From the NCBI GenBank assembly GCA_022843125.1, contig JALHOG010000001.1:6088-70087 (forward strand): a stretch of DNA of 64,000 nucleotides. Reading direction: 5' to 3'. Below are positions 6,570 to 33,915 of this stretch, in pieces. Position numbers and translations under genes: made by a program. The stretch comes from Ilumatobacteraceae bacterium. GTDB taxonomy: Bacteria > Actinomycetota > Acidimicrobiia > Acidimicrobiales > Ilumatobacteraceae. The notes under the pieces were generated by a model that worked only from the letters and a program-made list of their open reading frames with translations, had not been told where the DNA came from and did no database searches. How positions within the stretch are numbered: the first letter of the stretch is position 1; every line of letters starts with the position of its first letter.

Positions 6570-6572
6570 GTA

Positions 6573-9568: not shown

Positions 9569-10329
9569 GCCGCCGCCCTCACGTCGTCGAGTGGCCGGTA
9601 CGCCGGGACGTCGAGGAGGCGGTCGACCGTGACGAACTCGTAGCCACCCGCCACGAGTTCGGGAACGATGCGGCGCATCGTTTCGACGGTGACCGACTTG
9701 TCCCACTCCTTCACCAGCGGAAAGGCGTCGTGGAAGCAGAAGATGGAACCGGGCTTGGCGTCGGCGATCGCCTGGCGGGCGACATCGTCCGGGTCGGGTT
9801 CGGGGACCTTCCAGTCGAGCGTGTAGACGTCCCAACCGACGATCGTGTAGCCGAGCCGATGCAGACGGCGGCCCTCCCATGGGGTGAGCCACCCCCACGG
9901 AGGTCGGTAGAGGGCGGGGCGCTTGCCGAGGACGGTGGCGATGCGAGTCTCGGCATCGACGATGTGGTCGGTGTCGCGGAACGACAGACCTGCGCCGCGG
10001 CTGTGGCGTTGGGAGTGGCTGCCGACGACATGGCCTTCGCGATCGGTTCGCTCGAGGATCTCCGGGTTCATGGCCACGTTCTCGCCGACGCAGAAGAACG
10101 TGCCGGGCACTCCGAGCTCGCCGAGGACGTCGAGGAGGCGCTCGGTCGACCCGACGCAGGGGCCGTCGTCGAACGTGAGGGCGACGCGCTTGGAGGTCCG
10201 GGGGCCGTGGTAGACGTACTGCCCCCGTCCGCCGTACGGCGGGGACAGCAGCTTCGTGAGGACCGGATCTCCGATCGAGTACACGAGGTTGCCGAGGTTC
10301 ACGTCGACTCCTCCGTCATCCGAGATCAC
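9565..10329 (-). CDS. polysaccharide deacetylase (CE4 / NodB homology domain)
   Basis: ORF track. Contains [10 protein letters not shown]...PGTFFCVG...[11 protein letters not shown], the NodB motifs 1-3. Confidence 0.85.
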
Positions 10330-12444: not shown

Positions 12445-12464
12445 GGGTGTCTCCTGTTTCTGCG

Positions 12465-13577
12465 TCAGCGTGCGTCGCACCAGGCGCGCACGGCGGTGAC
12501 GACGCGCTCCTGCTGCTCGGGGGTGATCTCGGGGAACATCGGGAGCGACAGCACCTCGTCGGCGGCGGCCTCGGCGTGCGGGAAGTCGCCGCGACCATGG
12601 CCCAGCTCGGCGAAGGCCTGCTGCAGGTGGACCGGGATCGGGTAGTGGATGCCGGTGCCGACACCCTGCTCGGTGAGATGAGCCTGCAGCCCGGCGCGGT
12701 CGTCGGTGCGGATCGCGTACACGTGGTACACGTGGCGGCGGTCGTCGAGCTGGCGAGGCACCTCGACGCCCGATCCGGCGAGCCACTCGTCGTAGCGGGC
12801 AGCGGCGGCGCGGCGGGCCTCGGTCCACCCTTCGATGTGCGCCATCTTCACCTTCAGCACGGCGCCCTGCATGCCTTCGAGCCGGTAGTTGAAGCCCTTG
12901 AGGACGTGGTGGTACTTCTCTTCGGCGCCCCAGTCGCGGAGCATGCGCACGGTTCGGGCGACCTGGTCGTCGCTCGTGGTGACAGCACCACCTTCGCCGT
13001 AGGCGCCGAGGTTCTTGCCGGGATAGAAGCTGAAGCAACCGGCGAGTCCGATCGACCCGGCGCGACGGCCCCGGTACTCGGCGCCGTGCGCCTGCGCTGC
13101 GTCCTCGATCACGGCGATGCCGCGACGGTCGGCGACTTCGACGATCGGATCCATGTCGGCCATCTGGCCGTAGAGGTGAACGGGCACGATGGCCTTGGTG
13201 CGCTCGGTGATCGCCGCCTCGATCGCCCTCGGGTCGATCGTGAACGACACGGGGTCGATGTCGACGAAGACCGGGGTGGCACCGCAGTAGTCGATCGCCG
13301 ACACCGATGCGATGAACGTGTGGGGAGTGGTGATCACCTCGTCGCCGGGCCCGATGCCCGCCGCGAGCATGGCGAGGTGCAGGGCGCTGGTCCCGGAGCT
13401 GGTGCCGAGCACGTGCGTGCTCTGCGCATACGGCGCGAACAGCGATTCGAACGCGACGACGTCGCGGCCCAGGACGAACTGGGTGCTGTCGAGCAGCGCG
13501 AGGACCGCCTCGTCGATGTCTGCCTTGATCGAGAGGTACTGCGCCCGCAGGTCGACGAAGGGAACGGAACCGGACAT
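12465..13577 (-). CDS. DegT-family aminotransferase, WbpE-like
   Basis: Part of ORF 12465..13775 from [25 protein letters not shown]. Contains [31 protein letters not shown] and FSFYPGKNLGAYGEGG. Confidence 0.9.
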   Translation of the reverse strand: MSGSVPFVDLRAQYLSIKADIDEAVLALLDSTQFVLGRDVVAFESLFAPYAQSTHVLGTSSGTSALHLAMLAAGIGPGDEVITTPHTFIASVSAIDYCGATPVFVDIDPVSFTIDPRAIEAAITERTKAIVPVHLYGQMADMDPIVEVADRRGIAVIEDAAQAHGAEYRGRRAGSIGLAGCFSFYPGKNLGAYGEGGAVTTSDDQVARTVRMLRDWGAEEKYHHVLKGFNYRLEGMQGAVLKVKMAHIEGWTEARRAAAARYDEWLAGSGVEVPRQLDDRRHVYHVYAIRTDDRAGLQAHLTEQGVGTGIHYPIPVHLQQAFAELGHGRGDFPHAEAAADEVLSLPMFPEITPEQQERVVTAVRAWCDAR

Positions 13578-14605
13578 CAGACACTCCCTCGCATCGGCAG
13601 GATCTCGATCGGCAGCCCGCGTCGGGCCATCGACTCGTGGGCGGCTTCGAGGATTCGGACGACCCGCAGGCCGGCGCGCCCGTCGGACAGGGGCGTGTCG
13701 CCGGAGATGATGCAGTCGACGAAGTGCTGCGTTTCGATCGCGAGGGCCTCGACGTTGTCGAGCCGCGGCGCCCACATGTCACCGGTGCGGTACCCGACGT
13801 GCCGCTGGTACACGGCCTCTTCGGCCTCGTCGAGGATCACGCCCTTGTCGTAGACCTTGACCTTCTCGCTCATGTCGACATCGTCGAAGACCACCATCTT
13901 CTCCGAGCCGCAGAGCAGCGTCTGGCGCACCTTGACCGGTGCAAGCCAGTTGACGTGGAAGTGGGCGATCAGGTTGTCGGGGAACATGCACGTGAGGTAC
14001 GCCATGTTCTCCGGCTGCCCCGGCACGTGCGCGACGCCCGTGGCCGACACCGTCACCGGGTCGCAGTCGAGCAGGTAGTCCATGATCGACAGGTCGTGGA
14101 CGGCCAGGTCCCACATGACGCTCACGTCGCTCTGGAACAGGCCGAGGTTCACGCGAACCGAGTCGTAGTAGTACAGCTTCCCGAGCTCGCCCGCTGACAC
14201 CAGCTCGTGGATCTTACGGACCGCGCTCGTGTAGATGAATGTGTGGTCGACCATCAGCGTCAGCTCGCGCTCGTCGGCGAGAGCGATCAGCTCCTCGCCC
14301 TCGGCCGAGGTCGCGGTGAACGGCTTCTCGACGAAGACGTGCTTGCCGGCGAGCAGCGCTTGTTTGGCGAGCGGGTAGTGGGTGCTCACCGGCGTGGCGA
14401 TGACAACGGCGTCGACCGCCGGGTCGGCGAGCATCGCGCCGGCGTCGGTGTACGTGTTCACCGCCGGATAGAGCTTGTTGACGACACCGAGCCGCTCCTG
14501 GCGGCCGTCGCACACGGCCACGACACCGGCGCCGTCGACCTGCGCGAAGTTCCTGACGAGGTTGGGGCCCCAGTAGCCGTATCCGATGACGCCGATCCCG
14601 ATCAT
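13577..14605 (-). CDS. Gfo/Idh/MocA oxidoreductase, WbpB-like
   Basis: ORF track. Opens [20 protein letters not shown] (Rossmann fold) and has the EKP motif in HVFVEKPF. Confidence 0.9.
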
Positions 14606-15165
14606 GCTCGCTCCGCCTCGTGCACGCTGGCCGTGCGTGCCTCATCTGCCGTCTCGAAGCGCTGGCCGGCCGCGCTCACGTATCCGATGATCCGACCCGG
14701 GTTCCCGATCACGAGCGCGTGGTCGGGCACGTCCTTGGTGACGACGGTACCGGACCCGATCATCGCCCATCTGCCGATTTCGATGCCGGTGACGACCACT
14801 GCGCCGGCGCCGATCGCGGCGCCGTGGCGCACGACGGTGCGGCCGAGTTCCCAGTCGTCGGCGGACTTCAGCGCACCCGCCGGCGTGATCGCCCGCGGCA
14901 CCTTGTCGTTCGTGAAGATCACATGCGGTCCGACGAACACGCCGTCTTCGAGCGTGACGCCCTCGTACAGTGATGCGTTGTTCTGGACCTTGACGTTGTC
15001 GCCGAGCTCGACGTCGACGTCGACGAAGCAGTTGCGCCCGAGGATGCAACCGCGTCCGACTCGTGCGCCGGCCCGGACCTGCACGAGTGCCCAGACCTTC
15101 GTGCCGTCGCCGAGGGTTGCACCGTCTTCCACCAGTGCGGTGGGGTGCACGAAGGTCCCACTCAT
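14602..15165 (-). CDS. LbH N-acetyltransferase, WbpD-like
   Basis: ORF track. Hexapeptide repeats run through [21 protein letters not shown]...[41 protein letters not shown]. Confidence 0.85.
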
Positions 15166-15346
15166 CGTCCGATCATCCGTTCACTTCCGCCGTTCACGGG
15201 CCCATACCCGCTGTGTCAACATTGTGCACGCTACTGGCCGTCGGACGGGGCGCGATTTCAAGATTCACCGACCGTTTACCGTGGAGCGCGCGAGCCCGGC
15301 CACTGATCGTCCGATCGGCGCCGCCCCGACCGTCAGCGCGGTCGGA

Positions 15347-16324
15347 TCATCCCACGAGACGGTCGAACGCCTCGCGCCCACCGAGCTCATCGGCCATCCC
15401 CCGGTGCAGCTCGACGGCGTAGACGCCGCTGAGGGCGTACCGGCGGACCCGAACGAGACGTGTCTGCAGCGCGAGGCGTTCGAGCAGGGCGACCGATCGG
15501 GTGCGCCACCGGTCGGAGCGGATGCATCGCTTGACGAGCACGCGGATCGCGACGTGGTGCTGGCGGAACGTGTGGCGGCGGAAGCCGTAGATCCACGATT
15601 GCCCGCGATCCCGGGCGAAGACGATCTCGTTGCGGCCGTACAGGTACGCCGCAGACCGCCACGCCTCGTACGAGCGCTCGGCGTAATGCTCGCCTCTGGC
15701 GGACGGCTCGAAGTGGAACGTGAGGCCGTGGTCGGCCAGGCGGAACGCGAGCTCGATGTCCTCCGCCCGGCGAAACTCGGTGTCGAAGCCGCCCACGTCG
15801 ATCAGGTGCGATCGCCGCACCGACGCGTTCCCGGTGTAGAACTGCCGCGACGTCGCCTCGTACCTGCCCTGCAGCATGTCGTCGTACTGCTTGGCGAGCA
15901 TCGCCTGCTCCCAGGCGATCCATGGCGACATGTCATGGTCGGGAGGGTCGAGCATCGGCCCGATCACCACGACGCGATCGCCGAGGCGATGGTGGGCATC
16001 GCGGTGCGCTCGGAGCAGGCGTGCGTCGGCGACGACGTCATCGTCGACGAACACCACCAACTCGCCCATCGCTCGGGCGACGCCTGCGTTGCGTGCCCCG
16101 GCCGGACCCTGGTTGGCTTGGACCAGCGCGACGATCGGGAGCGGCACGTCCGCACTGTGGAGGTAGGCGTCGGTGTCGTCGGTACTGCCATCTGACACGA
16201 CGATCACCTCGAACGGCTCGTCGATGTCCTGCACGGCCAGCGATCGCAACACCCGGTGCAGACGCTCGCGCCGGTTGAAGGTGGGGACGACGACGCTGAT
16301 CCGCGGCGAGACCGGGTCGTTCAC
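15347..16324 (-). CDS. glycosyltransferase family 2
   Basis: ORF track. Contains [24 protein letters not shown]...[13 protein letters not shown]...VFVDDDV. Confidence 0.85.
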
Positions 16325-16863
16325 AGCGTCTTCACGACCTTGGCGGGTACCCCGACGGCCACGGAGCGGGGAGGGATGTCGTGCGTGACGACACTGCCGA
16401 TGCCGATGACCGAGTCGTCACCGATGGTGACCCCGGGCATCACGATCACACGCGCGCCGAGCCAGACGTTCTCACCGATCGTGATCGGTCGTGCCGTCGG
16501 CGGCTCGAGGCGCCGTTCGGGGTCGACGTCGTGGAATCCGGTGTCCATGATCATGCAGTGCGGGCCGATCAGTGCCCGCGGGCCGATCGTGACGCGCTCG
16601 ATCGCGACGATCGAGCACCCGAAGTTGATGAGCGATCGCTCGCCGATCTCCAGCGTCGCACCACGCTCTGCAACGAGCTCCAGGGTCGCAACGGTCGACA
16701 CGAACTGGACGCGGTCGCCGATCAGCAGGTTGCCGCGAGCGATCACGACCGGGCGACCGCGGAGTCGGACGCGCGCTCCGAGCCGAGCTGCACGCCGGAG
16801 GTACCAGCGTGCTCGCAACGTCGCGACGGCGTCGCCGCGGCGTTGCCACGCGCGACGGATCAC
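16321..16863 (-). CDS. LbH acetyltransferase (maltose/galactoside O-acetyltransferase-like)
   Basis: C-terminal part of ORF 16321..17361. Contains [51 protein letters not shown]. Start taken at GTG 16863, which overlaps the upstream stop as GTGA. Confidence 0.75.
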
Positions 16864-17408
16864 GGCAGTTCCCGAACAGGTCGAGCGGGAACGCCGGCGA
16901 CGAGCGTGTTGGGAGCGACGTCGCTGGCAACCACGGACCCGGCCGCGACGAGCGAACCTGGACCGATGGTGACCCCTGGGAGCACTGTCGCTCGTGCGCC
17001 GAGCCAGCAGCCGTTCCCGATGGTCACGGGCGCCGTTCGGTTGGCGGCAGCGCGTTGTGACGCATCGCCGATCTCGTGCGTCTGCGTCAGGAGCATCACG
17101 TTCTGGCCGATCGCCACGTCGTCGCCGATCTCGATCCGATCGGAGGCGTCGAGGTAACACCCTGCGTTGATCCAGACGCGGGCGCCGATCTCCACACGTC
17201 GAGCGCCGTTGCGTCCGGCGATCGTGAGGTGTCCACCGATCACTGACGCTCGACCGATCCGAACCCCGGCGCTCCGGAACAGCTTCGTGCGTACTCGGTT
17301 GCCGACGAGGTCGGGCAGCGCGCCGCTCACCGCTTCGGCGAGCGGCAGCATCGGCCGGCATCCGTTGAGCTCCTCACGAGCGACGCGGACGATCCGTCGA
17401 AGTTTCAC
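16860..17408 (-). CDS. LbH acetyltransferase (tandem paralogue of the preceding gene)
   Basis: ORF track. Contains [51 protein letters not shown]. Confidence 0.8.
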
Positions 17409-18834: not shown

Positions 18835-21800
18835 ATGAGCGGAGAAGCGGGAACGAGCGTGCCGGCACGCCGCGTCGCGATCGTCGGCGACGCGACGTTG
18901 ACCGGGCAGTGCGTCGAGGTGGCGCGTGGACGCGGGCTCGATGTCGTGGTCGTGGCGACCGAGCACCCCCACGTACGAGCGCAGGCCTCGGAGTTCGGTG
19001 TCCCCGTCGTCGCATCGGCCGACGTCGTCCGGGGCGCGCTCGACGTGTTCGAGTTCGACGTGCTCCTGAGCATCGCGAACCTCCGTGTGCTGCCCGAGTC
19101 GGTGCTGCGCCGTGCTCGGTACGCGATCAACTTCCACGACGGGCCGCTGCCGGCGCTCGCAGGGCTGAACGTCACCACATGGGCGATCCTCGCCGGTGCC
19201 GAGACCCATGCCGTCACGTGGCACCTGATGACCGACGACGTGGATGGCGGCGCCGTCGTCACCACCGAGTCGTTCGACATCGACGGCGATGACACCGCGT
19301 TCTCGCTCAATGCTCGCTGCTACGAGGCGGCGATGGTCAGCTTTCCGCGCGTGGTCGATGCGCTCGTGTCCGGTCGGATCGAGGCGACGCCGCAGCCGGC
19401 CGGGGAGCGGCGCACGTGCAAACGCTTCGAGCGTCCTGCGTTGATCATCGATCCGGCTCGTCACGCAGTCGCAACGGTCCGGGAGATCCGCGCCTGCAGC
19501 CTCGGTCATGCCGCTCCCAACTCGATCGGCGCGTCGCACCTCATTGCCAACGGACAGGTCGTGGTCGTCACGGGTGCTCGCATCGCCGAGTCCGTCGGGG
19601 CGCCGGCCGGCACGGTGACGATCGACGATGGCGCGCTCCGGTTGGCGGCCACCGGTGGTGACATCGTGATCGACGGGATCGAATCGGTCGACGGCCGTCA
19701 GCTCCTGCCTGCCGACGCGCTCGCCACTCTCGGCCTCACGTCAGGCTCGGTCGTGCCGAGCCCGGCGCCTGCGTTGGCGGATGCATTCGCCGCGCTCGAC
19801 CCTGCCCTCGCCCGCCATGAACCCTTCTGGCGAACTGCGCTCGCGGGCATGTCGTCCTCGGCACGACCGTGGTTCCTCGAACGCCCCACGTCGTCGCCGG
19901 CGGTGGTGCGCCGCGACCTGCCACGCGGCGCAACGCCCGACGACGTGGCTGCCGCCATCGCGGCATGGAGCCGCCGAGCGCTCGGCGCCGCCGAGGCGGT
20001 GTTCGCCGTCGCCGACGAGTCGGCACGATCCTGCGTCGCAGCGCTGTTCCCGCTCGCACAGCAGCCCGTGGTGCGGATCGCCGTCGACGACGGCGTCCCG
20101 TTCGGAGAGCTCTGCCACCGAGCTGCGCGCACGCGGACCGAAGCACTCGACCACGGGCCGTTCCTGAGCGACCTGGTCGGACGTGATCCGGTGCTGCGAG
20201 GGACGGTGATCGCGCCGCATCTGACACTCGACACCAGAACCGCCGAGATCGCGCCCGACGCCCATCCACACGCACCGTCATCGACGCTGCGCGTGGGCGT
20301 CCACGACGGACGCCTCGAGTGCCGCGGGCCTGCTGAGCAGCGCTCGCTCGAGCGGTTCGCCGATCAGATCGTCGTGCTGCTGGCCGCCGGCCTCGCGGCT
20401 CCCGGCACACCCATCGGCGAACTGCCGATGCTCGGCGCCGACGAAGTCGCCGAGCTCGATTCGATCAACCGCACCGAGATCACGTTCGACCGCGACGCCA
20501 CGATCGACGAGCTGTTCCGCCGGCAGGCCGAGCGCACACCGGCCGCGCCCGCACTCACATTCGGCGGCGAGACGCTCACCTACGAGCAACTCACCCGACG
20601 CGTCGACGCGATCGCTTCCCAGCTCGCTGCAGCCGGTGTCGGGCGGAACGACCGCGTCGGCATCGCGCTCGAGCGGAGCGCCGACATGGTGGCGTCGGTA
20701 CTCGCCACGCTCGCGTGCGGTGCCGCCTACGTGCCGCTCGACCCCACCTACCCGCCCGACCGCATCTCGCTGATGATCGAGGACAGCGGTCTGCGGGTCC
20801 TCGTCGCCGAGCCCGGCAACCCCGTGGTCGTCGGCGCGCCCGATGGCGTCGTGGTGATCCAGCCGACGCCCGACAGAACCGGCGCCGGTGCGTCCCTGCC
20901 GGTGGGCGGCCACATCGCCGACGATCTCGCGTACGTCATCTACACCTCGGGTTCGACGGGCACGCCCAAGGGCGTGATGCTCGAGCACCGGAACGTCGTC
21001 AATTTCTTCGCGGCCATGGACGCCGTGATCGACCACGATCCCCCCGGCGTCTGGCTCGCCGTCACGAGCCTCTCGTTCGACATCTCCGTCCTGGAGTTGC
21101 TGTGGACCGTGACCCGCGGCTTCCACGTCGTCGTCAAGCCGGACAGCGGGGCGAAGGCGATGCGACGGCACGCTCCGGCTCTCCGGCCGATGTCGATGAG
21201 CCTCTTCTACTTCGCTGCCGGCGAGGACACCGCCGCCGACGGCTATCGGCTGCTGCTCGACAGTGCTCGGTGGGCCGATGCCCAGGGGCTGGAGGCGGTG
21301 TGGACGCCCGAGCGGCACTTCCACGCGTTCGGCGGTGCCTACCCCAACCCGTCGGTGATCGGCGCCGCGATCGCTGCCGTCACCGATCGCATCCGCATCC
21401 GTGCGGGCAGCGTGGTGGCCCCGCTGCACTCGCCGGCCCGGATCGCCGAGGAATGGGCCGTCGTCGACAACCTGTCGGGTGGTCGCGTCGACATCTCGTT
21501 CGCAGCCGGATGGCAGCCCAACGACTTCGTCCTCAACCCCGATGCGTACGCGACCGCCCGCGAGTCGCTGCCGAGCATCGTCGACACCGTGCGGCGGCTG
21601 TGGCGCGGCGAATCGGTCGACATGGCAGGTCCCGACGGCGCGATGGTGCCCATCCGGACCCTCCCGCGCCCGATCCAGCCGGAACTCCCGGTGTGGCTCA
21701 CCTCGGCCGGGTCGACCCCCACCTTCGAGCGCGCCGGGGCGATGGGTGTCAACCTGCTCACGCACCTCCTCGGCCAGTCGATCGAGCAGCTGGCGGAGAA

Positions 21801-23496
21801 CGTCGCCGCGTATCGGCGGGCGTGGCGCGACGCAGGCCACCCGGGCGAGGGGCGTGTGACGCTCATGCTGCACACCTACCTGCACGACGACGCCGACGAG
21901 GCACGTCGCGTCGCCCATGAACCGATGAAGCGGTACCTCGGCACGGCGGCCGGCCTGCTCCGCAACATGGCCTCGGCGTTCCCGGTGTTCGCGGGGAGCG
22001 GGAAGGACGCCGACGAGGCGTTCGCCTCGCTGACCCCCGACGAGCTCGACCAATTGCTCGAGATGGCGGCCGCTCGCTACCTGCACACGAGTGGCCTGTT
22101 CGGCACGGTCGACGACGCCGCCGAGCTGCTCGCCCGGTGCAGCGCCGCCGGTGCCGACGAGATCGCGTGCCTGGTCGACTTCGGCATCGACACCGACGCC
22201 GTGCTCGGCTCCCTGCCGTTGCTCGGCGCCGTGCACAATCGGTTGGTCGCCGGTCGGGCGGCCGGGTCACCGGCGGTATCGGAGGCTGTCGACGCGCTCG
22301 ACGTCTCGTTCGCCCAGCTCGTCGCCGATCACTCGGTCACCCACCTGCAGTGCACACCGTCGTTGGCCACGATGCTCGTCGCCGATCCCGCCGACCGCGC
22401 TGCGCTCGGCACGATCCCGCATGTCATGCTCGGTGGCGAGGCGCTCCCGACAGCGCTCGCATCCGAGCTGACGGCGATGTTGCCGGGCCGGCTCACCAAC
22501 ATGTACGGCCCGACCGAGACCACCATCTGGTCGCTCGTGCACGACGTCACATCGGTGCCTTCGACGGGCATCCCGATCGGCCGCCCGATCGGGAACAACA
22601 CGGTCTTCGTGCTCGACCCCGCTGGGCGTCGGCTCCCGATCGGCGCGTTCGGTGAGCTCCACATCGGCGGTGACGGGGTGGCGCGCGGATACCACGAGCG
22701 ACACGAGCTCACGGCACAGCGCTTCGTCGACCGGCCGGGCATGGGCCGCGTGTACGCGACCGGCGACGTCGTCCGGTTCAACGGTGACGGGATCGTCGAG
22801 TTCGCCGGGCGCTCTGATCACCAGGTGAAGATCCGTGGCCATCGCATCGAGCTCGGCGAGATCGAGACCGTGATCGACGGCCACCCCGACATCGTCCAAT
22901 CGGTCGTCGTCGCCCACCGCCCTCCGACGGGCGACCCGCGGCTGGTGGCCTTCGTGGTCACGAGCGCCGGGGTGCCCGTCGACGAGGCGCTCGTGCGCAG
23001 CTCGGTCGGCGAGCGGCTCCCCGAGGCGTATGTGCCGACTCGCGTGGTGCGGCTCGACGGGTTGCCGCTCACCCCCAACGGCAAGACCGACCGGAGCCGG
23101 CTGGAAGCCGATGTCGAGGCGTACCTCGCAGGTGTGCCCGATGTCGAGCTCGCCACTCCTGTTCTCGACGACGACACGGAACAGCTCGTGGCCGAGGTGT
23201 GGCAGGCCGAGTTGCGCCGTCCAGTCGGACCCGATGACAACTTCTTCGAGATCGGCGGCAACTCGCTGCTCGCCGTCACGGTGTTCCGCTCGGTGTGCGA
23301 GCGGACGGGTGCCGAACTCGCACTGACCGACGTCTTCCGCTTCCCGACGATCCGCACCTTCGCCGCCCACCTCCGACGTGTCTCCGAGCAGCGCGCCGGT
23401 GGCGCGTCCGGCCCGGAGGCAGCGGCATCGGCGCCGAGCGGCGCGATCGACCGCGGCGCGATGCGGCGGCGGGCGCTCGCCAGGCGAGGGGGATGA
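18835..23496 (+). CDS. NRPS loading protein: formyltransferase-like, C-terminal half of a condensation domain, adenylation domain interrupted by an LLM, then PCP
   Basis: ORF 18763..23496. Start taken at ATG 18835, preceded by GAGGCGGAGAAGAG. A-domain core motifs are A3 YTSGSTGTPKG (20941-20973), A4 FDIS (21076-21087), A5 NMYGPTE (22498-22518), YATGD, GRSDHQVKIRGHRIELGEIE and PNGKTDR. The PCP motif FFEIGGNSL has its Ser codon at 23263-23265. Confidence 0.9.
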   Translation: MSGEAGTSVPARRVAIVGDATLTGQCVEVARGRGLDVVVVATEHPHVRAQASEFGVPVVASADVVRGALDVFEFDVLLSIANLRVLPESVLRRARYAINFHDGPLPALAGLNVTTWAILAGAETHAVTWHLMTDDVDGGAVVTTESFDIDGDDTAFSLNARCYEAAMVSFPRVVDALVSGRIEATPQPAGERRTCKRFERPALIIDPARHAVATVREIRACSLGHAAPNSIGASHLIANGQVVVVTGARIAESVGAPAGTVTIDDGALRLAATGGDIVIDGIESVDGRQLLPADALATLGLTSGSVVPSPAPALADAFAALDPALARHEPFWRTALAGMSSSARPWFLERPTSSPAVVRRDLPRGATPDDVAAAIAAWSRRALGAAEAVFAVADESARSCVAALFPLAQQPVVRIAVDDGVPFGELCHRAARTRTEALDHGPFLSDLVGRDPVLRGTVIAPHLTLDTRTAEIAPDAHPHAPSSTLRVGVHDGRLECRGPAEQRSLERFADQIVVLLAAGLAAPGTPIGELPMLGADEVAELDSINRTEITFDRDATIDELFRRQAERTPAAPALTFGGETLTYEQLTRRVDAIASQLAAAGVGRNDRVGIALERSADMVASVLATLACGAAYVPLDPTYPPDRISLMIEDSGLRVLVAEPGNPVVVGAPDGVVVIQPTPDRTGAGASLPVGGHIADDLAYVIYTSGSTGTPKGVMLEHRNVVNFFAAMDAVIDHDPPGVWLAVTSLSFDISVLELLWTVTRGFHVVVKPDSGAKAMRRHAPALRPMSMSLFYFAAGEDTAADGYRLLLDSARWADAQGLEAVWTPERHFHAFGGAYPNPSVIGAAIAAVTDRIRIRAGSVVAPLHSPARIAEEWAVVDNLSGGRVDISFAAGWQPNDFVLNPDAYATARESLPSIVDTVRRLWRGESVDMAGPDGAMVPIRTLPRPIQPELPVWLTSAGSTPTFERAGAMGVNLLTHLLGQSIEQLAENVAAYRRAWRDAGHPGEGRVTLMLHTYLHDDADEARRVAHEPMKRYLGTAAGLLRNMASAFPVFAGSGKDADEAFASLTPDELDQLLEMAAARYLHTSGLFGTVDDAAELLARCSAAGADEIACLVDFGIDTDAVLGSLPLLGAVHNRLVAGRAAGSPAVSEAVDALDVSFAQLVADHSVTHLQCTPSLATMLVADPADRAALGTIPHVMLGGEALPTALASELTAMLPGRLTNMYGPTETTIWSLVHDVTSVPSTGIPIGRPIGNNTVFVLDPAGRRLPIGAFGELHIGGDGVARGYHERHELTAQRFVDRPGMGRVYATGDVVRFNGDGIVEFAGRSDHQVKIRGHRIELGEIETVIDGHPDIVQSVVVAHRPPTGDPRLVAFVVTSAGVPVDEALVRSSVGERLPEAYVPTRVVRLDGLPLTPNGKTDRSRLEADVEAYLAGVPDVELATPVLDDDTEQLVAEVWQAELRRPVGPDDNFFEIGGNSLLAVTVFRSVCERTGAELALTDVFRFPTIRTFAAHLRRVSEQRAGGASGPEAAASAPSGAIDRGAMRRRALARRGG
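18868..19700 (+). other. formyltransferase-like domain (N and C subdomains) of the loading protein; boundaries approximate
   Basis: Contains RRVAIVGD...AINFHDGPLPALAGLN. Asn 19129-19131 and His 19135-19137 match the N-x-H of FMT/GART-type transferases. LMTDDVDGG supplies the Asp. Confidence 0.7.
21190..22230 (+). other. LLM domain inserted between A4 and A5 of the adenylation domain; boundaries approximate
   Basis: Contains MSMSLFYFAAGEDTAADGYRLLLDSARWADAQGLEAVWTPERHFHAFGGAYPNPSVIGAAIAAVTDRIRIRAGSVVAPLHSPARIAEEWAVVDNLSGGRVDISFAAGW...ACLVDFGIDTD. This is the pattern of FMN-dependent LLM domains found embedded in NRPS/PKS proteins. Confidence 0.8.
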
Positions 23497-26400
23497 GCGT
23501 GCAGGACGACGCAAACGCCGAGACAGACATCGCGATCGTCGGCATGTCGGGCCGCTTCCCGGGCGCGCCCGACGCCGAGGCGCTGTGGGAGCGCGTCGTG
23601 GCCGGCGACGACTGCCTCGCCGATCTCGACCCGAGATCACTCATCGCCGCCGGTGTCGACGCAGCGCTGGTTCGCCGACCCGAGTTCGTGCCGCGTGCCG
23701 GCGTGATCGAGGGCGTCGATCAGTTCGACCACGACTTCTTCGGGATCAGCCACCGCGATGCGTCGGTCATGGATCCGCAGCACCGGCATTTCATGGAGTC
23801 GGCGTGGGAGGCGCTCGAGTCGTCGGGCAACACGCCCGAGGGCTTCGACGGGGCGATCGGTGTGTTCGCCGGGTCCGGGATGAACACGTACCTGCTGCAC
23901 AACCTGCTGACGAACCCGTCGCTCGTCGAACAGCTCGGCTGGTTCCTGCTCCGTCACACCGGGAACGACAAGGACTTCCTCACCACCACGCTCTCGTACC
24001 GGCTCGGCCTCCGCGGCCCCTCGGTCAACGTGCAGACCGCCTGCTCGACGTCGCTCGTCGCCGTGCACCTGGCGGTGCAGAGCCTGCTCTCGTTCGAGTG
24101 CGACCTGGCGCTCGCCGGCGGCGTCACGATCGAGTTCCCGCACGGTCGCGGCTACGAGTACCGCGAGGGGGAGATCCTCTCCCCGAACGGTCGCTGTCGA
24201 GCGTTCGATGCCGCATCCGACGGGACGGTCATCACCGGGGGTGCTGCGGTCGTGGCCCTCCGCCGCCTCGCCGACGCCCAGCAGAACGGCGACCCGATCC
24301 TCGCGGTCATCAAGGGCTCGGCCGTCAACAACGACGGCAACCGCAAGGTGGGGTACTTGGCACCCAGCGTCGACGGCCACGCAGATGTGGTCAAGGAGGC
24401 GCTCACGGTCAGCGGTGTCGACCCGAGGTCGATCGGCCTGCTCGAGGCCCACGGCACGGGCACCGCCGTCGGTGACCCGATCGAGGTCGCCGCACTCACC
24501 GAGGCGTTTCGCTCGGGCACCGCCGACCAGGGCTTCTGCCGGCTCGTCTCGACGAAGCCCAACATCGGGCACCTCGACACGGCGGCCGGCACGGCGAGCC
24601 TCATCAAGGTGGTCCAGGCGTTACGCCACGGCATCCTGCCCCCGCTCGCCAACCACACCGCGCCGAGCCCGCTGCTCGGCATCGAGCGGACCCCGTTCGT
24701 GCTGTCGGCCGAGGCCGCCCCATGGACCGCTGACGGCCCGCGCCGGGCCGGCGTCAGCTCGCTCGGTGTCGGTGGCACGAATGCGCACGTGGTCGTCGAG
24801 GAGGCGCCGCCCGTACCGCCGACGCCCGCGGCAGTTCCGGGGCAGATCATCACGTTGTCGGGCTCCTCGCGTGCGGCGGTCGACGACGCGGCCGAGCGTC
24901 TCGCCGCATTCATCGAGCGGCAGCCCGAGACCAACCTCGCCGACGTTGCGCACACGATGATCACGGGCCGCCGTGTGCATCGCCATCGGCGGGTGGTGGC
25001 CGTCACCGATGCGTCCAGCGCGCCCGCAGAGCTCCGTAGCACCGATCGTCGGCGCTGTCCAACGGCCGAGGCGCCCGCCGAGCGACCCCAGATCGCGTTC
25101 GTCTTCCCGGGCGGTGGCTCGCAATACCCGGGCATGGGGGCCGGGCTCGACGCCCGTTTCGACGAGTTCCACCGCGTCCGGCGTGAGGGCATCGAGATCG
25201 TGCGTCGGCTCGGCGGTGCCGATCTCGACCCGCTGCTCTCCGACGGTGGCGACGCCGATCTGCTCCGCCAGCCGACCGCGTCGCTGCCCGCCGTGTTCAT
25301 CACGTCGACCGCGCTCGCCCGCCAGTGGCAGACATGGGGCGTCGAGCCGGACGTCATGGTCGGGCACAGCCTCGGTGAGTACGTCGCTGCGCACCTCGCG
25401 GGCGTGATCTCGTACGAGGACGCGCTGCGGCTCGTGGTCGTCCGCTCGGCGCTCATGGAGCGCGCAGCCGTCGGTGGTGCGGCGATGCTCGTCGTTCCAC
25501 TGCCCGAAGCCGAGGTGGTGCGTCGGCTCCCCGCCGAGCTGTCGCTCGCCACGGTGAACACCGACGACGAGTGCGTCGTCGCCGGCCCGGCCGACGCCGT
25601 GTCCCGGTTCGCCGACGCCCTGACCGGAGAGGGCATCGAGGTGACCCGCATCCCGCTCGCCGCCGCAGCTCACTCGTCGATGCTCGACGGCGTGCTCGAC
25701 GAGTTCGAAGCGGTCGTGCGCACGGTCACGCTCCACTCGCCGCAGCGTCCATATCTCTCGAACGTCACCGGGACCTGGATCACCGAACAGCAGGCCACCG
25801 ACCCGCGCTACTGGGTGCAGCACCTGCGGGGCACGGTCCGCTTCGCAGACGGGCTGCGGACGGCGATCGGGGAGCGAACGACCGTCGTGGTCGAGCTGGG
25901 CCCGGGCCAGACGCTGGCGTCGTACGCCCGCCGCAGCGGCCTGCCCGTGCGGGCGATCTCGACCCTGCGACACCCCGACGACCTCGTCAGTGATGTCAAC
26001 CACACGCTGGGTGCGTTCGCGCAGCTCTGGACGCACGGAGTCGACGTCGACCTCGACCACACGACAGGTGAGGGTCGAGGTGAGGGTCGCCGGAAGCTCC
26101 GGCTGCCGACCTACCCGTTCCAGCGGGTGCGGTGCTGGATCGAGCCGGGCAGCGGTTCGGCGCTCGGAGGGAGCAATCCCTCGGCGTCGACCGACATCGA
26201 ACCCGCCGTCGAACGGTTCGCGGACGTCGATCAGATGGGTTGGCAGCTCACCTGGGTCGAAGCGCCTGATCCCGAGCGCGTCGCGAGCGAGCGGCGCTGG
26301 ATCGTCGTCGGCGGCGCGGATGCGGTCGTCGACGAGCTACGGTGCCGTGGGCGCACGGTCGTGCGCCGCGATCGTCTCGTGCTCGACGATGCCGAGTTGG

Positions 26401-29400
26401 TGGGCGATGAGTCCGCCCCGGTGGGCGTGCTGCTCGCCGGTTCGGGCGGCGACGTCGAGGGAGCGATGTCGCTCTGGCTCGATCAGGCTGCGGACGCCGT
26501 CCGCTGGCTGTCGAACACGTCGACCGACCCGCGCTTCGTCGCACTCACCTCGGCGGCGATGCCCGCTGGAGGCTCGGTCACGAACCCCATCGACGCACTC
26601 GCGATGGGTGCGGTCCTGGTGGCGCCCCGCGAGTACGCCGGGCTCGCGACGGCCCTGGTCGATGTCGTCGAGGGTGCCGACGTCGACATCGGTGCGATCG
26701 TCGACGAGATCGAGGGGGCGAGCGGCATCGTGGTGCTGGGCGACGGGCAGCGCCGCTCGCCGGGACCGGTCGCCGAGGCGCCGACATCGTTCGACGCGCA
26801 GCCGGGGATCCGGCACGGCGGGACCTACGTGGTCACCGGTGGATTGGGCGGGATCGGTGAGGTGATCGCAGCGCACCTCGCGACGCAGCACGCGACCAAC
26901 CTGGTGATCCTCACCACCGACGACCTCCCCCGGGGGATCGATCGCGACCGCTTCCTTCGCCGGCACGCGTACGACCACCCCACCTGCCGCCGCCTCCGGA
27001 GGATCGCCCATCTCGAGCAGCTCGGCGTCAAGGTGGTCGTCGAGCGCGCCGACGTGAGCGACCCCGACCAGATCCGGGCGGCACTCGACGCTGCCGAGCG
27101 GACCGTCGGTCCGATCGACGGTGCGATCCACGCTGCGGGCCGGTTGCGCGACCGCCCGATCGGGCTCGCCACGCCCGACGACCACCGGTTCGTCATCGAG
27201 CCGAAAGTCGGCGCGGCGGTCGTGCTCGCGTCCGAGCTCGCACGACGCGGCGCCGATCTGCTCGTGCTCGTGTCGTCGACGAGCACGATCCTCGCTCCCG
27301 AGGGCCAGATGTCGTACGTCGCTGCCAACGGTGTGCTCGACGCGATGGCCGGCGACCGGAACGGACTCCGGATCGTGACGCTGTCGTCGGGCGTCTGGTC
27401 GGGTCTCGGCATGGCGACCGAGGCCGGCCGGCGTTCCCGACTCGCGCTTCCGGGCGGCGACGCGCTGGAGCACCCGGTGTTCGCCGAGGGAGGGCTCGAC
27501 CATCGCGGCGATTTCGTCGCGACCGGGCAGCTCCACCCGCAGCACCACTGGGTGGTCGATGATCACCGGACTGCCGATGGCACAGCGGTCCTGCCCGGAA
27601 CCGGGCATGTGGCGCTCCTGCTCGCAGCGGCCCGGCTCGCCGGGGTGAACCACCCGCAGCTCGACGACGTCACGCTGATCGAGCCCCTGATCGTCCCCGA
27701 TGACCGTCCGGTGACGGTGCGGGTCGTGGTCGAGCGCGACGTCGACGGTCGCAGGGCAGTGCGCGTCGACAGCGATGGTGGAGGGGGCGCACAGTGGACG
27801 ACGCACAGCGAAGCGACCGTGTCGGATGGGCCCGCCGCAGCGCGCCGGATCGACATCGATGCGATCGTCGCACGCTGCGGACTCGATGCGGGTCATCCCA
27901 TGGCGGCGGCGGCGGAGCACCTCGTGCTCGGGCCGATGTGGCAGCTGGACGGCCAGGTGTGGCTTGGCGACCGCGAGGCCTTCGGACGGGTCGCAGGAGG
28001 CGACGACACCGATGTCGACGACGGATGGATCGCACATCCCTCGGTGGTCGATCTGGCCACCGGTGTCGCGATCGCGCTGGCCGCATCGGAAGGTTCGCAG
28101 CTCTTCGTGCCCGTTGCGTACGAAGCGGTGCGTCTCAGCGCTCCGGTGATGGGCCCCTGTGTCGTACACGCGACGCGGCGCCCCTCCGACACCGGAGACC
28201 TCGTCGCCGACATCGTGATCGCGAATGCGGATGGCACGGCACTGCTCACGATCGACGGTCTCCACCTTCGCGGGATCGACGTCTCCGTGTTGTCCAATGC
28301 ATCCCAACACCACACGGCCGGAGCACCGGGCGGAGCGGGAACGGACCGCGGCGTGCTCGATCTCGCCGAGCCGCTCGGCCTGCGCCCCGAGGAGGCACTT
28401 CCCTGGTTCGATCGTCTGGTGGGGTCCGACCTCGACCGGGTCATCGTGACGTCGATCGACCTCGAATCGCTGCGACGCACCGAAGCACCGGCTCACGGGG
28501 GCACGCCTGCGGCGGTCGACCGACCCGGCGTCACGGCCGGTCTCGACGATCAGCTCACACTGATGTGGCAGGAACTGCTCGGCGTCGCCCAGGTCGGACC
28601 CGACGACGACTTCTTCGACCTCGGCGGGCACTCCCTCATGGCGATCCGCCTCATGACGCGCATCAAGCGCGAGCTCGGCGTGCGCTTCGAGCTCTCGACG
28701 ATCTTCGAGGCATCGACCGTCCCTGCGCTCGCGGCCCTCGTCCGGCAGCAGCGCCCGGACATCGATGCGGCCCTGTCGTCGTCATCGGGTGAGGCCGCAG
28801 CCGCGCCCCTCGCCGTCGGTCAGATGCCGGCACCAGTGCGCAAGCAACTCGTGACGATCAGTCGTCGTGGGGAGCGGCGGCCGTTCTACGTGGTGCACGG
28901 TGCCGGCGGCAATGTGCTGTTCCTGTCGACGCTCGCACGCGCGCTCGCCGGAGATCGGCCGATCCACGGCTTCCAGGCGATCGGCGTCAACGAAGGTGAG
29001 ATCCCCGATCGGTCGATCGAGGAGATGGCGGCCCGCTACGTCGCCGAGCTGCGAGAGCACTCCCCGGCCCCCTATCTCCTGGGCGGGTACTCGGGCGGTG
29101 GGATCGTGGCGCTCGAGATGGTGCGGCAGCTCGCTGCGCTGGGTGACCAGGTGGAGCACCTCGTCCTGTTCGACAGCGCACCACCGGGAACCACCTGGCC
29201 ACGATTCCGCGTCCGCTGGACCCGTCTGCTCCGCCGGCTGCTCGCCGGCGAGGCGGCACCCGTCAAGGCGCACACCATCCGGGGCGTGAAGGCGTCGCTG
29301 CGGCGAGTACTGCCGGAGCGGGCCGAACAGCGCCAGGAGCATGACCTGCAGGAGCGAGCGCTCGGCTACGCCGGCGACGACACGGGATTCGTCAACCTCT

Positions 29401-29693
29401 TCTACTATTTCTCGGCGACTGCGGACCAGTACAGCATCGGCACCTACGACGTCGATGTGACCGTGATGAAGGCCAACCACGTGTGGCCGGTTCACCGCGA
29501 CGACTACTACTGGTCCGACTACATCGTCGGGCAGCTCACGTGGCGCAGCGTCCCCGGGGATCACCACTCCATGTTCTATCCGGAGCACGCACCGGCACTG
29601 GCTGCGGCGGTTCGCGCCGTGCTCGACCCGCTCGACGCGGCGAGCGCGCCCCTTGACACAGACGGTGGTCGGGCAGCCGCGGATCGCCCGTGA
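23493..29693 (+). CDS. type I polyketide synthase, KS-AT-KR-DH-CP-TE
   Basis: ORF 23295..29693. ATG 23493 overlaps the upstream stop as ATGA. The KS motif TACSTS has Cys at 24042-24044, followed by EAHGTGT and NIGH. The AT motif GHSLGE has Ser at 25368-25370. The KR has GTYVVTGGLGGIG (26821-26859) and a SYVAAN Tyr at 27315-27317. The DH has HPVF...DDHRTADGTAVLPG with His at 27564-27566, then LGPMW and HPSVVDLATG. The carrier motif FFDLGGHSL has Ser at 28632-28634. The TE has GGYSGGG (29083-29103). Confidence 0.95.
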   Translation: MSVQDDANAETDIAIVGMSGRFPGAPDAEALWERVVAGDDCLADLDPRSLIAAGVDAALVRRPEFVPRAGVIEGVDQFDHDFFGISHRDASVMDPQHRHFMESAWEALESSGNTPEGFDGAIGVFAGSGMNTYLLHNLLTNPSLVEQLGWFLLRHTGNDKDFLTTTLSYRLGLRGPSVNVQTACSTSLVAVHLAVQSLLSFECDLALAGGVTIEFPHGRGYEYREGEILSPNGRCRAFDAASDGTVITGGAAVVALRRLADAQQNGDPILAVIKGSAVNNDGNRKVGYLAPSVDGHADVVKEALTVSGVDPRSIGLLEAHGTGTAVGDPIEVAALTEAFRSGTADQGFCRLVSTKPNIGHLDTAAGTASLIKVVQALRHGILPPLANHTAPSPLLGIERTPFVLSAEAAPWTADGPRRAGVSSLGVGGTNAHVVVEEAPPVPPTPAAVPGQIITLSGSSRAAVDDAAERLAAFIERQPETNLADVAHTMITGRRVHRHRRVVAVTDASSAPAELRSTDRRRCPTAEAPAERPQIAFVFPGGGSQYPGMGAGLDARFDEFHRVRREGIEIVRRLGGADLDPLLSDGGDADLLRQPTASLPAVFITSTALARQWQTWGVEPDVMVGHSLGEYVAAHLAGVISYEDALRLVVVRSALMERAAVGGAAMLVVPLPEAEVVRRLPAELSLATVNTDDECVVAGPADAVSRFADALTGEGIEVTRIPLAAAAHSSMLDGVLDEFEAVVRTVTLHSPQRPYLSNVTGTWITEQQATDPRYWVQHLRGTVRFADGLRTAIGERTTVVVELGPGQTLASYARRSGLPVRAISTLRHPDDLVSDVNHTLGAFAQLWTHGVDVDLDHTTGEGRGEGRRKLRLPTYPFQRVRCWIEPGSGSALGGSNPSASTDIEPAVERFADVDQMGWQLTWVEAPDPERVASERRWIVVGGADAVVDELRCRGRTVVRRDRLVLDDAELVGDESAPVGVLLAGSGGDVEGAMSLWLDQAADAVRWLSNTSTDPRFVALTSAAMPAGGSVTNPIDALAMGAVLVAPREYAGLATALVDVVEGADVDIGAIVDEIEGASGIVVLGDGQRRSPGPVAEAPTSFDAQPGIRHGGTYVVTGGLGGIGEVIAAHLATQHATNLVILTTDDLPRGIDRDRFLRRHAYDHPTCRRLRRIAHLEQLGVKVVVERADVSDPDQIRAALDAAERTVGPIDGAIHAAGRLRDRPIGLATPDDHRFVIEPKVGAAVVLASELARRGADLLVLVSSTSTILAPEGQMSYVAANGVLDAMAGDRNGLRIVTLSSGVWSGLGMATEAGRRSRLALPGGDALEHPVFAEGGLDHRGDFVATGQLHPQHHWVVDDHRTADGTAVLPGTGHVALLLAAARLAGVNHPQLDDVTLIEPLIVPDDRPVTVRVVVERDVDGRRAVRVDSDGGGGAQWTTHSEATVSDGPAAARRIDIDAIVARCGLDAGHPMAAAAEHLVLGPMWQLDGQVWLGDREAFGRVAGGDDTDVDDGWIAHPSVVDLATGVAIALAASEGSQLFVPVAYEAVRLSAPVMGPCVVHATRRPSDTGDLVADIVIANADGTALLTIDGLHLRGIDVSVLSNASQHHTAGAPGGAGTDRGVLDLAEPLGLRPEEALPWFDRLVGSDLDRVIVTSIDLESLRRTEAPAHGGTPAAVDRPGVTAGLDDQLTLMWQELLGVAQVGPDDDFFDLGGHSLMAIRLMTRIKRELGVRFELSTIFEASTVPALAALVRQQRPDIDAALSSSSGEAAAAPLAVGQMPAPVRKQLVTISRRGERRPFYVVHGAGGNVLFLSTLARALAGDRPIHGFQAIGVNEGEIPDRSIEEMAARYVAELREHSPAPYLLGGYSGGGIVALEMVRQLAALGDQVEHLVLFDSAPPGTTWPRFRVRWTRLLRRLLAGEAAPVKAHTIRGVKASLRRVLPERAEQRQEHDLQERALGYAGDDTGFVNLFYYFSATADQYSIGTYDVDVTVMKANHVWPVHRDDYYWSDYIVGQLTWRSVPGDHHSMFYPEHAPALAAAVRAVLDPLDAASAPLDTDGGRAAADRP

Positions 29694-29852
29694 ACACCGG
29701 GAGAACAGAGAGAAATCCGGTAGCGGGGCAGCCGCGCGTTTGATAACCATGTGTGATGACCGGCGGGTCAGCGGTTCAATGCTCGTGCTACGTGGTGCGA
29801 GCAGACCTCATTCGACGGGCATCATCGGTGAGTGGCGGGAAGGAAGCGAGTC

Positions 29853-33906: not shown

Positions 33907-33915
33907 TCACGAATC

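Follow-up and report, generated by a model that had tools for sequence, protein, structure and literature searches.

The closest described relatives of the module considered here are the terminal modules MtaG and MelG of the myxothiazol and melithiazol assembly lines. Their monooxygenase (MOx) domain, located between motifs a4 and a5 of the adenylation (A) domain, hydroxylates the alpha-carbon of glycine; the amine or amide then departs and the glyoxylate stays bound to the T domain (PMC10204066; PMC11342130). As in MOx-bearing crz-like nonribosomal peptide synthetases (NRPSs), the A domain is of the Gly type and the inserted domain is a luciferase-like monooxygenase (LLM). All four known MOx-bearing Gly domains have the code DILQLGMIWK (PMC12283262). 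A flavin monooxygenase is also found in the A domain of the Gly module SolF (solanimycin), where alpha-hydroxyglycine is retained and extended (PMC10204066), but it is inserted between a8 and a9 of an internal module, whereas the module described below is a loading module interrupted between a4 and a5.

Other Gly modules initiate chains. In the biosynthesis of oxazolomycin (OzmO), conglobatin (CongA), phthoxazolin (PtxE) and rhizopodin, loaders made of an N-terminal formyltransferase (F), a Gly A domain and a peptidyl carrier protein (PCP) feed the ketosynthase (KS) of a polyketide synthase (PKS; PMC5764310), a layout and a hand-off that are shared by the present module. As described in the same paper, the OzmO/CongA/PtxE-type loaders have neither an oxygenase in their A domain nor a spacer corresponding to the C-terminal lobe of a condensation (C) domain, both of which are present here, and they are paired with an ATP-pyrophosphatase cyclodehydratase (OzmP, CongE or PtxD, with the motif SGGKDS) leading to an oxazole (PMC5764310).

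The window, i.e., the whole stretch of 64,000 nucleotides that was analysed, carries at 18835-23496 an NRPS loading-module gene encoding 1553 amino acids (+ strand, as for all its domains and for the adjoining PKS gene). Its product is identical to the database protein P0001, and the sequence located 5' of its ATG at 18835 is GGAGAAGAG. The translation of this open reading frame and its Pfam and NCBIfam domains give the succession F, C-lobe, N-terminal part of A, MOx, C-terminal part of A and PCP. As the N-terminus includes a formyltransferase and the C-terminal half of a C domain (C*), the order of the module is F-C*-A(MOx)-PCP. The initial annotation had seen a starter module located upstream of a KS; its starter position and the downstream KS hold, but the A domain does not come first, being preceded by F and the half C domain. 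The PCP (23185-23373; Pfam PP-binding, E 2e-12) harbours the motif FFEIGGNS, whose serine, S1477 (codon 23263-23265), is invariant in the family alignment. The stop codon of the NRPS gene and the start codon of the PKS gene, at 23493, share the sequence ATGA. No flavin reductase gene was identified adjoining this pair.

Pfam and NCBIfam both break the A domain into two stretches surrounding one LLM. The N-terminal part (20515-21171; Pfam AMP-binding stretch 562-780) includes motifs A1 to A4, among them A3 (YTSGSTG, 20941-20961) and A4 (FDIS, 21076-21087), and the C-terminal part (22300-23094; second TIGR01733 stretch and AMP-binding_C) includes motifs A5 (NMYGPTE, 22498-22518) to A10 (NGKTDR, 23077-23094). 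Counted from the start methionine, FDIS lies at residues 748-751, the LLM at about 788-1133 and NMYGPTE at 1222-1228. Inspection of the translation revealed all the core motifs from A1 to A10 as well as the PCP serine. Once the LLM is excised, the A domain aligns over its full length with NRPS A domains of solved structure, the best PDB match being the LgrA initiation-module structures.

The specificity code reads D235 I236 L239 Q278 M299 G301 M322 I330 W331 K517 (DILQMGMIWK), its positions being set by canonical motif anchors and family conservation rather than by direct alignment with GrsA (1AMU). Position 278 lies in LQCTPS (22345-22362) and positions 299 and 301 in MLGGE (22426-22440). This mapping is supported by the uniformity of the ten columns, which read DILQ[MLFC]G[MLV][IV]WK in all 38 aligned family sequences. 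The code is identical at nine of ten positions to DILQLGMIWK, which is found unchanged in seven of the 38 homologs. Judging from this code, the interrupted A domain would activate glycine and load it on the PCP. For the pocket region from A3 to A6, the best match is the A domain of LgrA module 2; as this Gly domain has a different glycine code, the match is uninformative about the code. The interruption of the A domain after A4 and before A5, seen in the sequence, and the ten-residue glycine-type code, extracted by eye, were both borne out at the exact motif coordinates (FDIS, LQCTPS, MLGGE, NMYGPTE and NGKTDR).

The insert (21196-22233) is an FMN-type LLM. The comparison with TIGR04020 proposed earlier gave a full-length match, covering profile positions 1-340 of 341 (E 9.6e-140; 465.5 bits for a cutoff of 244.45), and Bac_luciferase is also detected (E 4.6e-46). 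These E-values rule out that the splitting of the A domain by an oxygenase is due to chance. The best PDB match is the oxygenase domain of PuwE (6KET; E 1e-101 over 344 residues), and the TIGR04020 model names MupA/Atu3671-type LLMs. The insert shares with PuwE the motif PERHFHAFGG, and both carry R-H where LuxA-type enzymes carry H-H. The PuwE domain is credited with hydroxylating the alpha-carbon of an acyl chain bound to a carrier, which gives a 2-hydroxy acyl product (PMC4219810). It is located between PKS and NRPS modules and uses a fatty acyl substrate, whereas the insert described here lies inside an A domain.

The suggested homology to the MtaG/MelG-type cassette also stands, although the likeness is drawn from database relatives and published descriptions rather than from the MtaG sequence. 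The C-A(MOx) proteins P0052 and P0066 share about 51-57% identity with the module over the A core and MOx, and their insertion boundaries are identical. The TIGR04020 family of the LLM is common to the module and to MtaG/MelG, their glycine codes are the same except for one L/M change at position 299, and the substrate expected in both is an N-acylated glycyl thioester. The differences concern the surroundings of the cassette. The module described here is the first of its line whereas MtaG and MelG are the last of theirs, and the source of the N-acyl group is a fused formyltransferase instead of a functional C domain, this latter being reduced here to its C-lobe. Furthermore, the carrier passes its substrate to the KS of a separate protein, whereas that of MtaG and MelG passes it to a thioesterase (TE) of the same module, which releases a primary amide. 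Given this transfer to a KS rather than to a TE, the carbons derived from glycine would be kept and not discarded.

The F domain (18856-19665; Pfam Formyl_trans_N, E 3e-14) combines a catalytic N-subdomain and an FMT-like C-terminal subdomain. Its triad N99/H101/D137 is kept in 35 of 36 F-bearing homologs. The best PDB phmmer matches are the Met-tRNA formyltransferase 4IQF (residues 8-277), sugar N-formyltransferases, ArnA, GART and the F domain of LgrA. This latter, from the F-A-PCP initiation module of linear gramicidin, is detectably but weakly related (E about 3e-5), the domain being nearer to Met-tRNA and sugar formyltransferases. LgrA formylates valine, lacks MOx and is followed by a C domain, whereas the present module has a Gly code and MOx, and is followed by a KS.

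Pfam does not match the 360-residue spacer located behind F, and the N-lobe motif of C domains, HHxxxDG, is absent from the whole 1553-residue protein. At FWRxxL and at the C-A linker, BLASTP aligns this spacer weakly with the C domains of P0052 and P0066. The AlphaFold2 model of the segment 19732-20490, built from a 16-sequence alignment, has a pLDDT of 91.2 and a pTM of 0.88, and the best 50 PDB matches listed by Foldseek are all NRPS condensation folds with a probability of 1.0. Against stand-alone C domains, TMq is about 0.6-0.65 and TMt about 0.4. The segment is thus assigned as the C-terminal lobe only of a C domain, and it is proposed to be a structural vestige inherited from a C-A(MOx) ancestor. 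A unit made of F and the partial C-lobe also heads ordinary NRPSs devoid of MOx.

The adjoining gene (23493-29693) encodes a single-module PKS. Its Pfam domains are a KS (23523-24653), an acyltransferase (AT, 25098-25928), a ketoreductase (KR, 26820-27398), a dehydratase (DH, 27504-28277), a carrier (T, 28551-28742) and a TE (28881-29615). The translation displays the Cys/His/His residues of KS, GHSLGE of AT, GGLGGIG and SYVAAN of KR, HRTADGTAVLP of DH, GGHSL of the carrier and GYSGGG of TE. The location of KR before DH and the PCP-like carrier are atypical, so that this PKS could act iteratively, which would make the size of the product uncertain.

Taken together, these domains suggest that the loading module probably delivers an oxidised N-formylglycine, or glyoxylate resulting from its breakdown, to the one-module PKS. 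Glycine activated by the interrupted A domain would be placed on the PCP and, considering the N-terminal domain and its triad, formylated to N-formylglycyl-S-PCP as in other F-A-PCP loaders. The embedded FMN-dependent LLM, by homology with the A-MOx domains of MtaG and MelG, would then hydroxylate the glycine alpha-carbon. F would here supply the N-acyl group that the upstream chain supplies in MtaG. The N-terminal F had initially been missed; as the module starts with a formyltransferase and a half C domain, the expected substrate of MOx is N-formylglycyl-S-PCP, an amide as in MtaG, and not free glycyl-S-PCP. The N-formyl-alpha-hydroxyglycyl thioester would either go intact to the KS or lose formamide, leaving a glyoxylyl-S-PCP starter. 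One malonyl extension, ketoreduction and dehydration on the PKS, whose translation is coupled to that of the NRPS, and release by TE would give a small C4 acid. Candidate products are 4-formamido-4-hydroxybut-2-enoate, 4-oxobut-2-enoate or their butenolide forms. As a whole, this scheme, in which a loader with four activities, F-C*-A(Gly)::MOx-PCP, is followed by one PKS round, is considered reasonably probable. The formation of an oxazole, as in oxazolomycin, is rejected since the window includes no OzmP-like gene. None of its six frames encodes an SGGKDS protein, and the Pfam annotation of nine related loci shows no cyclodehydratase of the OzmP/CongE/PtxD type. The looser pattern SGG.DS has one six-frame match in the window, SGGGDS at nucleotide 45758, within an open reading frame (45326-48196) encoding a PAS/GAF/SpoIIE phosphatase.

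The fate of the hydroxylated intermediate can be read in two ways. It is possible, if somewhat doubtful, that the carbinolamide survives, N-formyl-alpha-hydroxyglycine being extended to an N-formyl hemiaminal or to 5-formamidobutenolide from which a CE4 deacetylase or deformylase may later strip the formyl group. In more than 100 protein clusters, F strictly accompanies the MOx cassette, which argues for this reading. Furthermore, some natural products keep alpha-hydroxyglycine (PMC10204066), and its retention and extension in SolF provide a precedent for a surviving carbinolamide. CE4 polysaccharide-deacetylase genes are found in the window (9565-10329) and in the related locus L004, and the F domain is ArnA-like. 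In the Ara4N pathway, the formyl group is removed by ArnD. However, glycan loci of any kind commonly carry CE4 genes, which are missing from most of the family loci examined, and the sole characterised A-MOx modules end in cleavage.

Such a cleavage is central to the other reading, which is judged unlikely. Formylation and hydroxylation would there serve only for a net oxidative deamination on the carrier; formamide would be lost and the KS would extend glyoxylyl-S-PCP to 4-oxobut-2-enoate or 5-hydroxybutenolide. The by-product that MtaG throws out would then be the building block. The cassette and the code are those of MtaG and MelG, in which the N-C-alpha bond is reported to break spontaneously after hydroxylation, leaving T-bound glyoxylate (PMC11342130; PMC10204066). 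An aldehyde product would also fit with the genes for an aldehyde-oxidase-family MoCo protein and an SDR located beside the NRPS gene in L088, and for an aldo-keto reductase and a GMC oxidoreductase located after the PKS gene in L005, but such accessory oxidoreductases vary between loci and are not conserved. Moreover, hydroxylation of free glycyl-S-PCP would give glyoxylyl directly, which would make the conserved F superfluous unless the oxygenase requires an amide. Acyclic N-acyl-alpha-hydroxyglycines can also survive, as in solanimycin B and spergualin (PMC10204066).

It is very improbable that MOx does not act on glycine, whether it alpha-hydroxylates the polyketide on the PKS carrier, as PuwE- or MupA-type LLMs, or is a structural relic. 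PuwE, its closest solved relative, does have a PKS context, and the PCP-like PKS carrier (GGHSL) might be within reach of a domain borne by the NRPS. However, whatever follows downstream, the glycine code and the insertion boundaries that go with the cassette are unchanged in all the cases examined (38 of 38 aligned sequences plus L009 and L010). A relic is also disfavoured by the mean identity across the family, which reaches 61% for MOx, on a par with the adenylation core and ahead of all the other segments, compared with 27% for the C-lobe. Finally, it is conceivable in a glycan locus, but extremely improbable, that the formyltransferase is simply joined to the NRPS and takes as its substrate an amino sugar from the glycan pathway encoded around it, rather than the carrier-bound glycine. 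The domain is close to Met-tRNA and sugar formyltransferases, sugar N-formyltransferases and ArnA outscore LgrA F in the PDB, and two sugar aminotransferases are encoded near the pair. However, F domains of the LgrA type are also relatives of sugar formyltransferases, the F and partial C-lobe unit heads ordinary NRPSs, and the fusion is kept in loci (L001, L003, L087 and L088) without glycan genes within 10 kb.

Besides these relatives, the preferred scheme, i.e., a formylating and oxidising glycine loader feeding one PKS module, brings together two known NRPS devices, the formylation of a glycine starter and an oxygenase in a Gly A domain, in a combination that was not found described in the open-access literature. 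In the same way, a search confined to open-access papers revealed no description of an F-A(MOx)-PCP module or of what the Rhodobacteraceae NRPS/PKS pair makes. With such a fusion, the chemistry of alpha-hydroxyglycine would no longer end a chain but start one, and carrier-bound glyoxylate, if it is really extended, would be a new kind of PKS starter. The compact module, a single 1553-residue protein, would also bear on the need of MOx for an N-acyl substrate and on whether N-acyl-alpha-hydroxyglycyl thioesters last long enough to be extended.

The module is not peculiar to the window but is part of a large, phylogenetically wide and generically annotated family, widespread among bacteria of the sea and of soils. 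When proteins are clustered at 90% identity, the F-C*-A(MOx)-PCP architecture is found in more than 100 clusters, carried by Acidimicrobiia, Rhodobacteraceae, Ramlibacter, Gemmatimonadota, Acidobacteriota and Planctomycetota. A PKS homolog is located within 10 kb of the NRPS gene in 12 of 13 family loci, L087 being the exception. The cassette, made of the NRPS and one PKS module and often accompanied by a PPTase, is spread over at least six phyla, including the abundant marine Rhodobacteraceae and Ilumatobacteraceae. This conservation, joined to its frequent location in glycan loci, suggests that its small product is probably common ecologically.

Surface-glycan genes are found in five of the 13 loci (the window, L002, L004, L005 and L086) and lie on both sides of the pair in the window; the eight others, among them L001, L003, L087 and L088, have none within 10 kb. 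As the two-gene cassette is often embedded in such loci, its product may be added to a glycan or occur along with one. A more far-reaching proposal, which seems distinctly unlikely, is that formylation provides an oxygenase-ready amide whose hydroxylation and loss of formamide would yield carrier-bound glyoxylate, used as an aldehyde-bearing PKS starter; hundreds of marine and soil lineages would then make a reactive C4 enal or butenolide, often from surface-glycan loci, that would modify or cross-link cell-surface polysaccharide.

A second NRPS gene of the window (33916-41193, - strand) was considered as a member of the same pathway and then set aside: it lies on the opposite strand, encodes a TE of its own and is without counterpart in related loci. 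A search of representative sequences with the N-terminal 545 residues gave 824 matches at E<=1e-30, a number that over-counts the family since the F and partial C-lobe unit is not restricted to MOx-bearing proteins. The scan of genome contigs with generic NRPS motifs retrieved mostly unrelated NRPSs, the full-length family members being those of L006, L007, L008 and L011 only.

The NRPS loading-module gene (18835-23496, plus strand, 1553 aa) encodes, according to Pfam, a Formyl_trans_N domain, two AMP-binding stretches with Bac_luciferase between them, an AMP-binding_C and a PP-binding domain. The insert in the adenylation (A) domain belongs to TIGR04020, the NCBIfam model of the MupA/Atu3671 family of natural-product LLMs; the match (nucleotides 21196-22233) spans profile positions 1-340 of 341 and reaches 465.5 bits for a cutoff of 244.45. 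The carrier serine and 10/10 adenylation core motifs are present in the protein. The split of the A domain by an LLM monooxygenase insert (MOx) is confirmed, with E-values that exclude chance. The initial annotation, which had described a glycine-type A domain interrupted by an LLM, was right in this observation, since Pfam and NCBIfam domains and motifs agree, and all its motif coordinates proved exact. Its interpretation holds in part: the wide spread of the module was not known to it and it overlooked a formyltransferase (F), which changes the substrate expected for the oxygenase. The module does not begin at the A domain, as F and half a condensation (C) domain precede it, and its architecture is F - C-lobe - A(N) - MOx - A(C) - PCP.

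Residues 8-277 align to Met-tRNA formyltransferase over both its subdomains; further matches are to sugar N-formyltransferases, ArnA, GART and, less strongly, the F domain of LgrA. The catalytic Asn-His-Asp triad (N99, H101, D137) is kept in 35 of the 36 F-bearing homologs. The following region, residues 300-552, has no Pfam match. AlphaFold2, run on a 16-sequence alignment, models it with confidence (pLDDT 91.2, pTM 0.88), and the best 50 Foldseek PDB matches listed all belong to NRPS condensation-fold domains (probability 1.0). Normalised to the query, TM-scores reach about 0.6-0.65; normalised to stand-alone C domains they are only about 0.4, which indicates half a C domain, corresponding to the C-terminal lobe. 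BLASTP gives weak matches to genuine C domains at the mid-domain FWRxxL motif and the C-A linker, and the HHxxxDG motif is found nowhere in the NRPS protein. F and part of the half-C spacer (19732-20490 in the window) also head ordinary multi-module NRPSs without LLM insert (P0210, P0216 and P0225). Because of this occurrence, F plus C-lobe may be a general, undescribed design for formylating initiation modules.

The specificity code of the A domain reads DILQMGMIWK, with GrsA numbering placed from motif anchors rather than by direct alignment to 1AMU: FDISVLE gives positions 235, 236 and 239, LQCTPS 278, MLGGE 299 and 301, NMYGPTETTIW 322, 330 and 331, and NGKTDR K517. In a MAFFT alignment, the code columns of all 38 homologs follow DILQ[M/L/F/C]G[M/L/V][I/V]WK, among them DILQMGMIWK (21 times) and DILQLGMIWK (7 times). 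A survey from 2025, covering 2051 A domains, found exactly DILQLGMIWK in all four known MOx-bearing glycine domains, and variation among glycine codes at positions 299, 322 and 330 (PMC12283262). The window code thus matches the MOx-associated glycine code at 9 of 10 positions. The A(MOx) proteins of two related loci (L009 and L010), which have no F domain, carry the same code.

Both the A-MOx glycine cassette and the F-A(Gly)-PCP loader are already known. In the terminal modules MtaG (myxothiazol) and MelG (melithiazol), the MOx lies between a4 and a5 and hydroxylates the glycine alpha-carbon, after which the nitrogen-bearing part departs and carrier-bound glyoxylate stays (PMC10204066, PMC11342130). 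Two database proteins, P0052 and P0066, have a complete C domain ahead of the same cassette; they share about 51-57% identity with the window protein over A core and MOx, with identical insertion junctions. Unlike the MtaG type, the window module has no functional C domain upstream and is not terminal with a TE; unlike the OzmO type, it has an interrupted A domain and no partner cyclodehydratase. The fusion of cassette and loader, with half a C domain between them and heading a one-module PKS, was not found described in the open-access literature. The best reading of the kept C-lobe is a remnant, left from a C-A(MOx) ancestor, that preserves the C:A platform. Compared with the window protein, the F-type family is most conserved in the MOx insert and the central part of the A domain (61% mean identity), ahead of the F domain (47%) and the C-lobe (27%); this pattern argues that the oxygenase is functional and that the C-lobe has a mainly structural role. 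Among solved structures, the insert is closest to the oxygenase domain of PuwE (6KET, E 1e-101), to which formation of the 2-hydroxy group on a carrier-bound acyl chain is assigned (PMC4219810); both share a PERHFHAFGG motif, at a site where LuxA-type enzymes have H-H.

The PKS gene (23493-29693) starts with an ATG at 23493 that overlaps the NRPS stop codon as ATGA. Its Pfam order is KS-AT-KR-DH-carrier-TE, with intact KS Cys/His/His, AT serine, KR, DH and TE serine motifs. It shows some oddities: KR lies ahead of DH, the carrier motif is PCP-like (GGHSL), and the AT specificity motif is AAAHS instead of HAFH or YASH. All NCBIfam models stay below cutoff; the top one, PKS_plus_SDR, scores 916 bits for a cutoff of 1740.

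In the most likely mechanism, glycine would be adenylated and loaded onto the PCP, then formylated by the F domain, the role proposed in F-A(Gly)-PCP loaders feeding a KS, i.e., OzmO (oxazolomycin), CongA (conglobatin), PtxE (phthoxazolin) and the rhizopodin loader (PMC5764310). The embedded oxygenase would then hydroxylate the alpha-carbon of the resulting amide, a substrate of the MtaG class. F would thus provide the minimal N-acyl group that comes from the upstream chain in MtaG. Two fates are plausible for the predicted N-formyl-alpha-hydroxyglycyl-S-PCP: it could survive and be extended, by analogy with the alpha-hydroxyglycine that survives in solanimycin B (PMC10204066), or lose formamide, so that glyoxylyl-S-PCP would be extended. 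A single extension with subsequent KR, DH and TE action would yield a C4 acid or a butenolide; the PKS may also act iteratively. An oxazole route is unlikely because an OzmP-type cyclodehydratase is neither encoded in the window nor listed in the related loci.

When 5.8 billion proteins were searched, over 100 clusters (90% identity) proved to share the Pfam set of the window protein and its length, about 1500-1600 aa; the closest is 69% identical. The closest sources are Ilumatobacter, Desertimonas and Acidimicrobiaceae; others are Phaeobacter, Pontibaca, Seohaeicola, Ramlibacter, Gemmatimonadaceae and Planctomycetes, and a genome scan added Pelagimonas, Roseovarius, Ruegeria and Acanthopleuribacter. 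Protein naming is generic in every source. Among 13 loci compared (the window, L001-L008, L011 and L086-L088), a PKS homolog lies within 10 kb of the NRPS in 12, the exception being L087, from a Planctomycetes genome. A PPTase gene adjoins in L001, L002 and L088. In L002 (Rhodobacteraceae, Seohaeicola), the order is PKS - GT2 - NRPS - PPTase, with the glycosyltransferase between the synthases; the PKS is likewise upstream in L006 (Pelagimonas) and L007 (Roseovarius). No homolog of this GT2 was detected in the window by tblastn. An SDR and an aldehyde-oxidase-family MoCo protein (L088, 14892-17962) and an aldo-keto reductase and a GMC oxidoreductase (L005, 21017-23441) stand beside the cassette; such aldehyde-handling enzymes would fit an aldehyde-bearing product.

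In the window, the upstream neighbour of the NRPS is a divergently transcribed GT4 glycosyltransferase gene, and the NRPS is therefore the first gene of its operon. Amino-sugar glycan genes of a large locus flank the NRPS/PKS pair on both sides (5253-17400 and 29832-32140). Besides GT4 and GT2 transferases, they encode a CE4 deacetylase (9565-10329), two DegT aminotransferases (10316-11497 and 12465-13775), a UDP-GlcNAc 3-dehydrogenase-like oxidoreductase (13577-14605), a NeuD/PglB-type N-acetyltransferase (14602-15165), an O-acetyltransferase (16321-17361), a nucleotide-sugar dehydrogenase (29832-31166) and an epimerase (31025-32140). In 5 of the 13 loci (the window, L002, L004, L005 and L086) the pair lies among glycan genes, a frequent context that suggests, speculatively given this count, a product linked to surface polysaccharide. 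Within the glycan locus of L086 (Ilumatobacter sp.) that also holds the family NRPS, positions 817-2723, a few genes upstream of this NRPS, encode an FkbH-like protein together with a free-standing carrier protein, a system of the glyceryl-ACP type.

A second, separate NRPS region occupies 32701-44502 of the window. It comprises a C-A-T-C-A-T-TE synthetase (33916-41193, minus strand), a Cys/Met-family PLP enzyme beside it (32701-33906), an ORF with a P450-like C-terminus (42414-44321, minus strand) and a weak match to an Sfp-type PPTase (44023-44469, plus strand), the sole PPTase match in the window. Downstream (44553-48196) are a LysR regulator (44553-45494) and a PAS/GAF/SpoIIE phosphatase (45326-48196).
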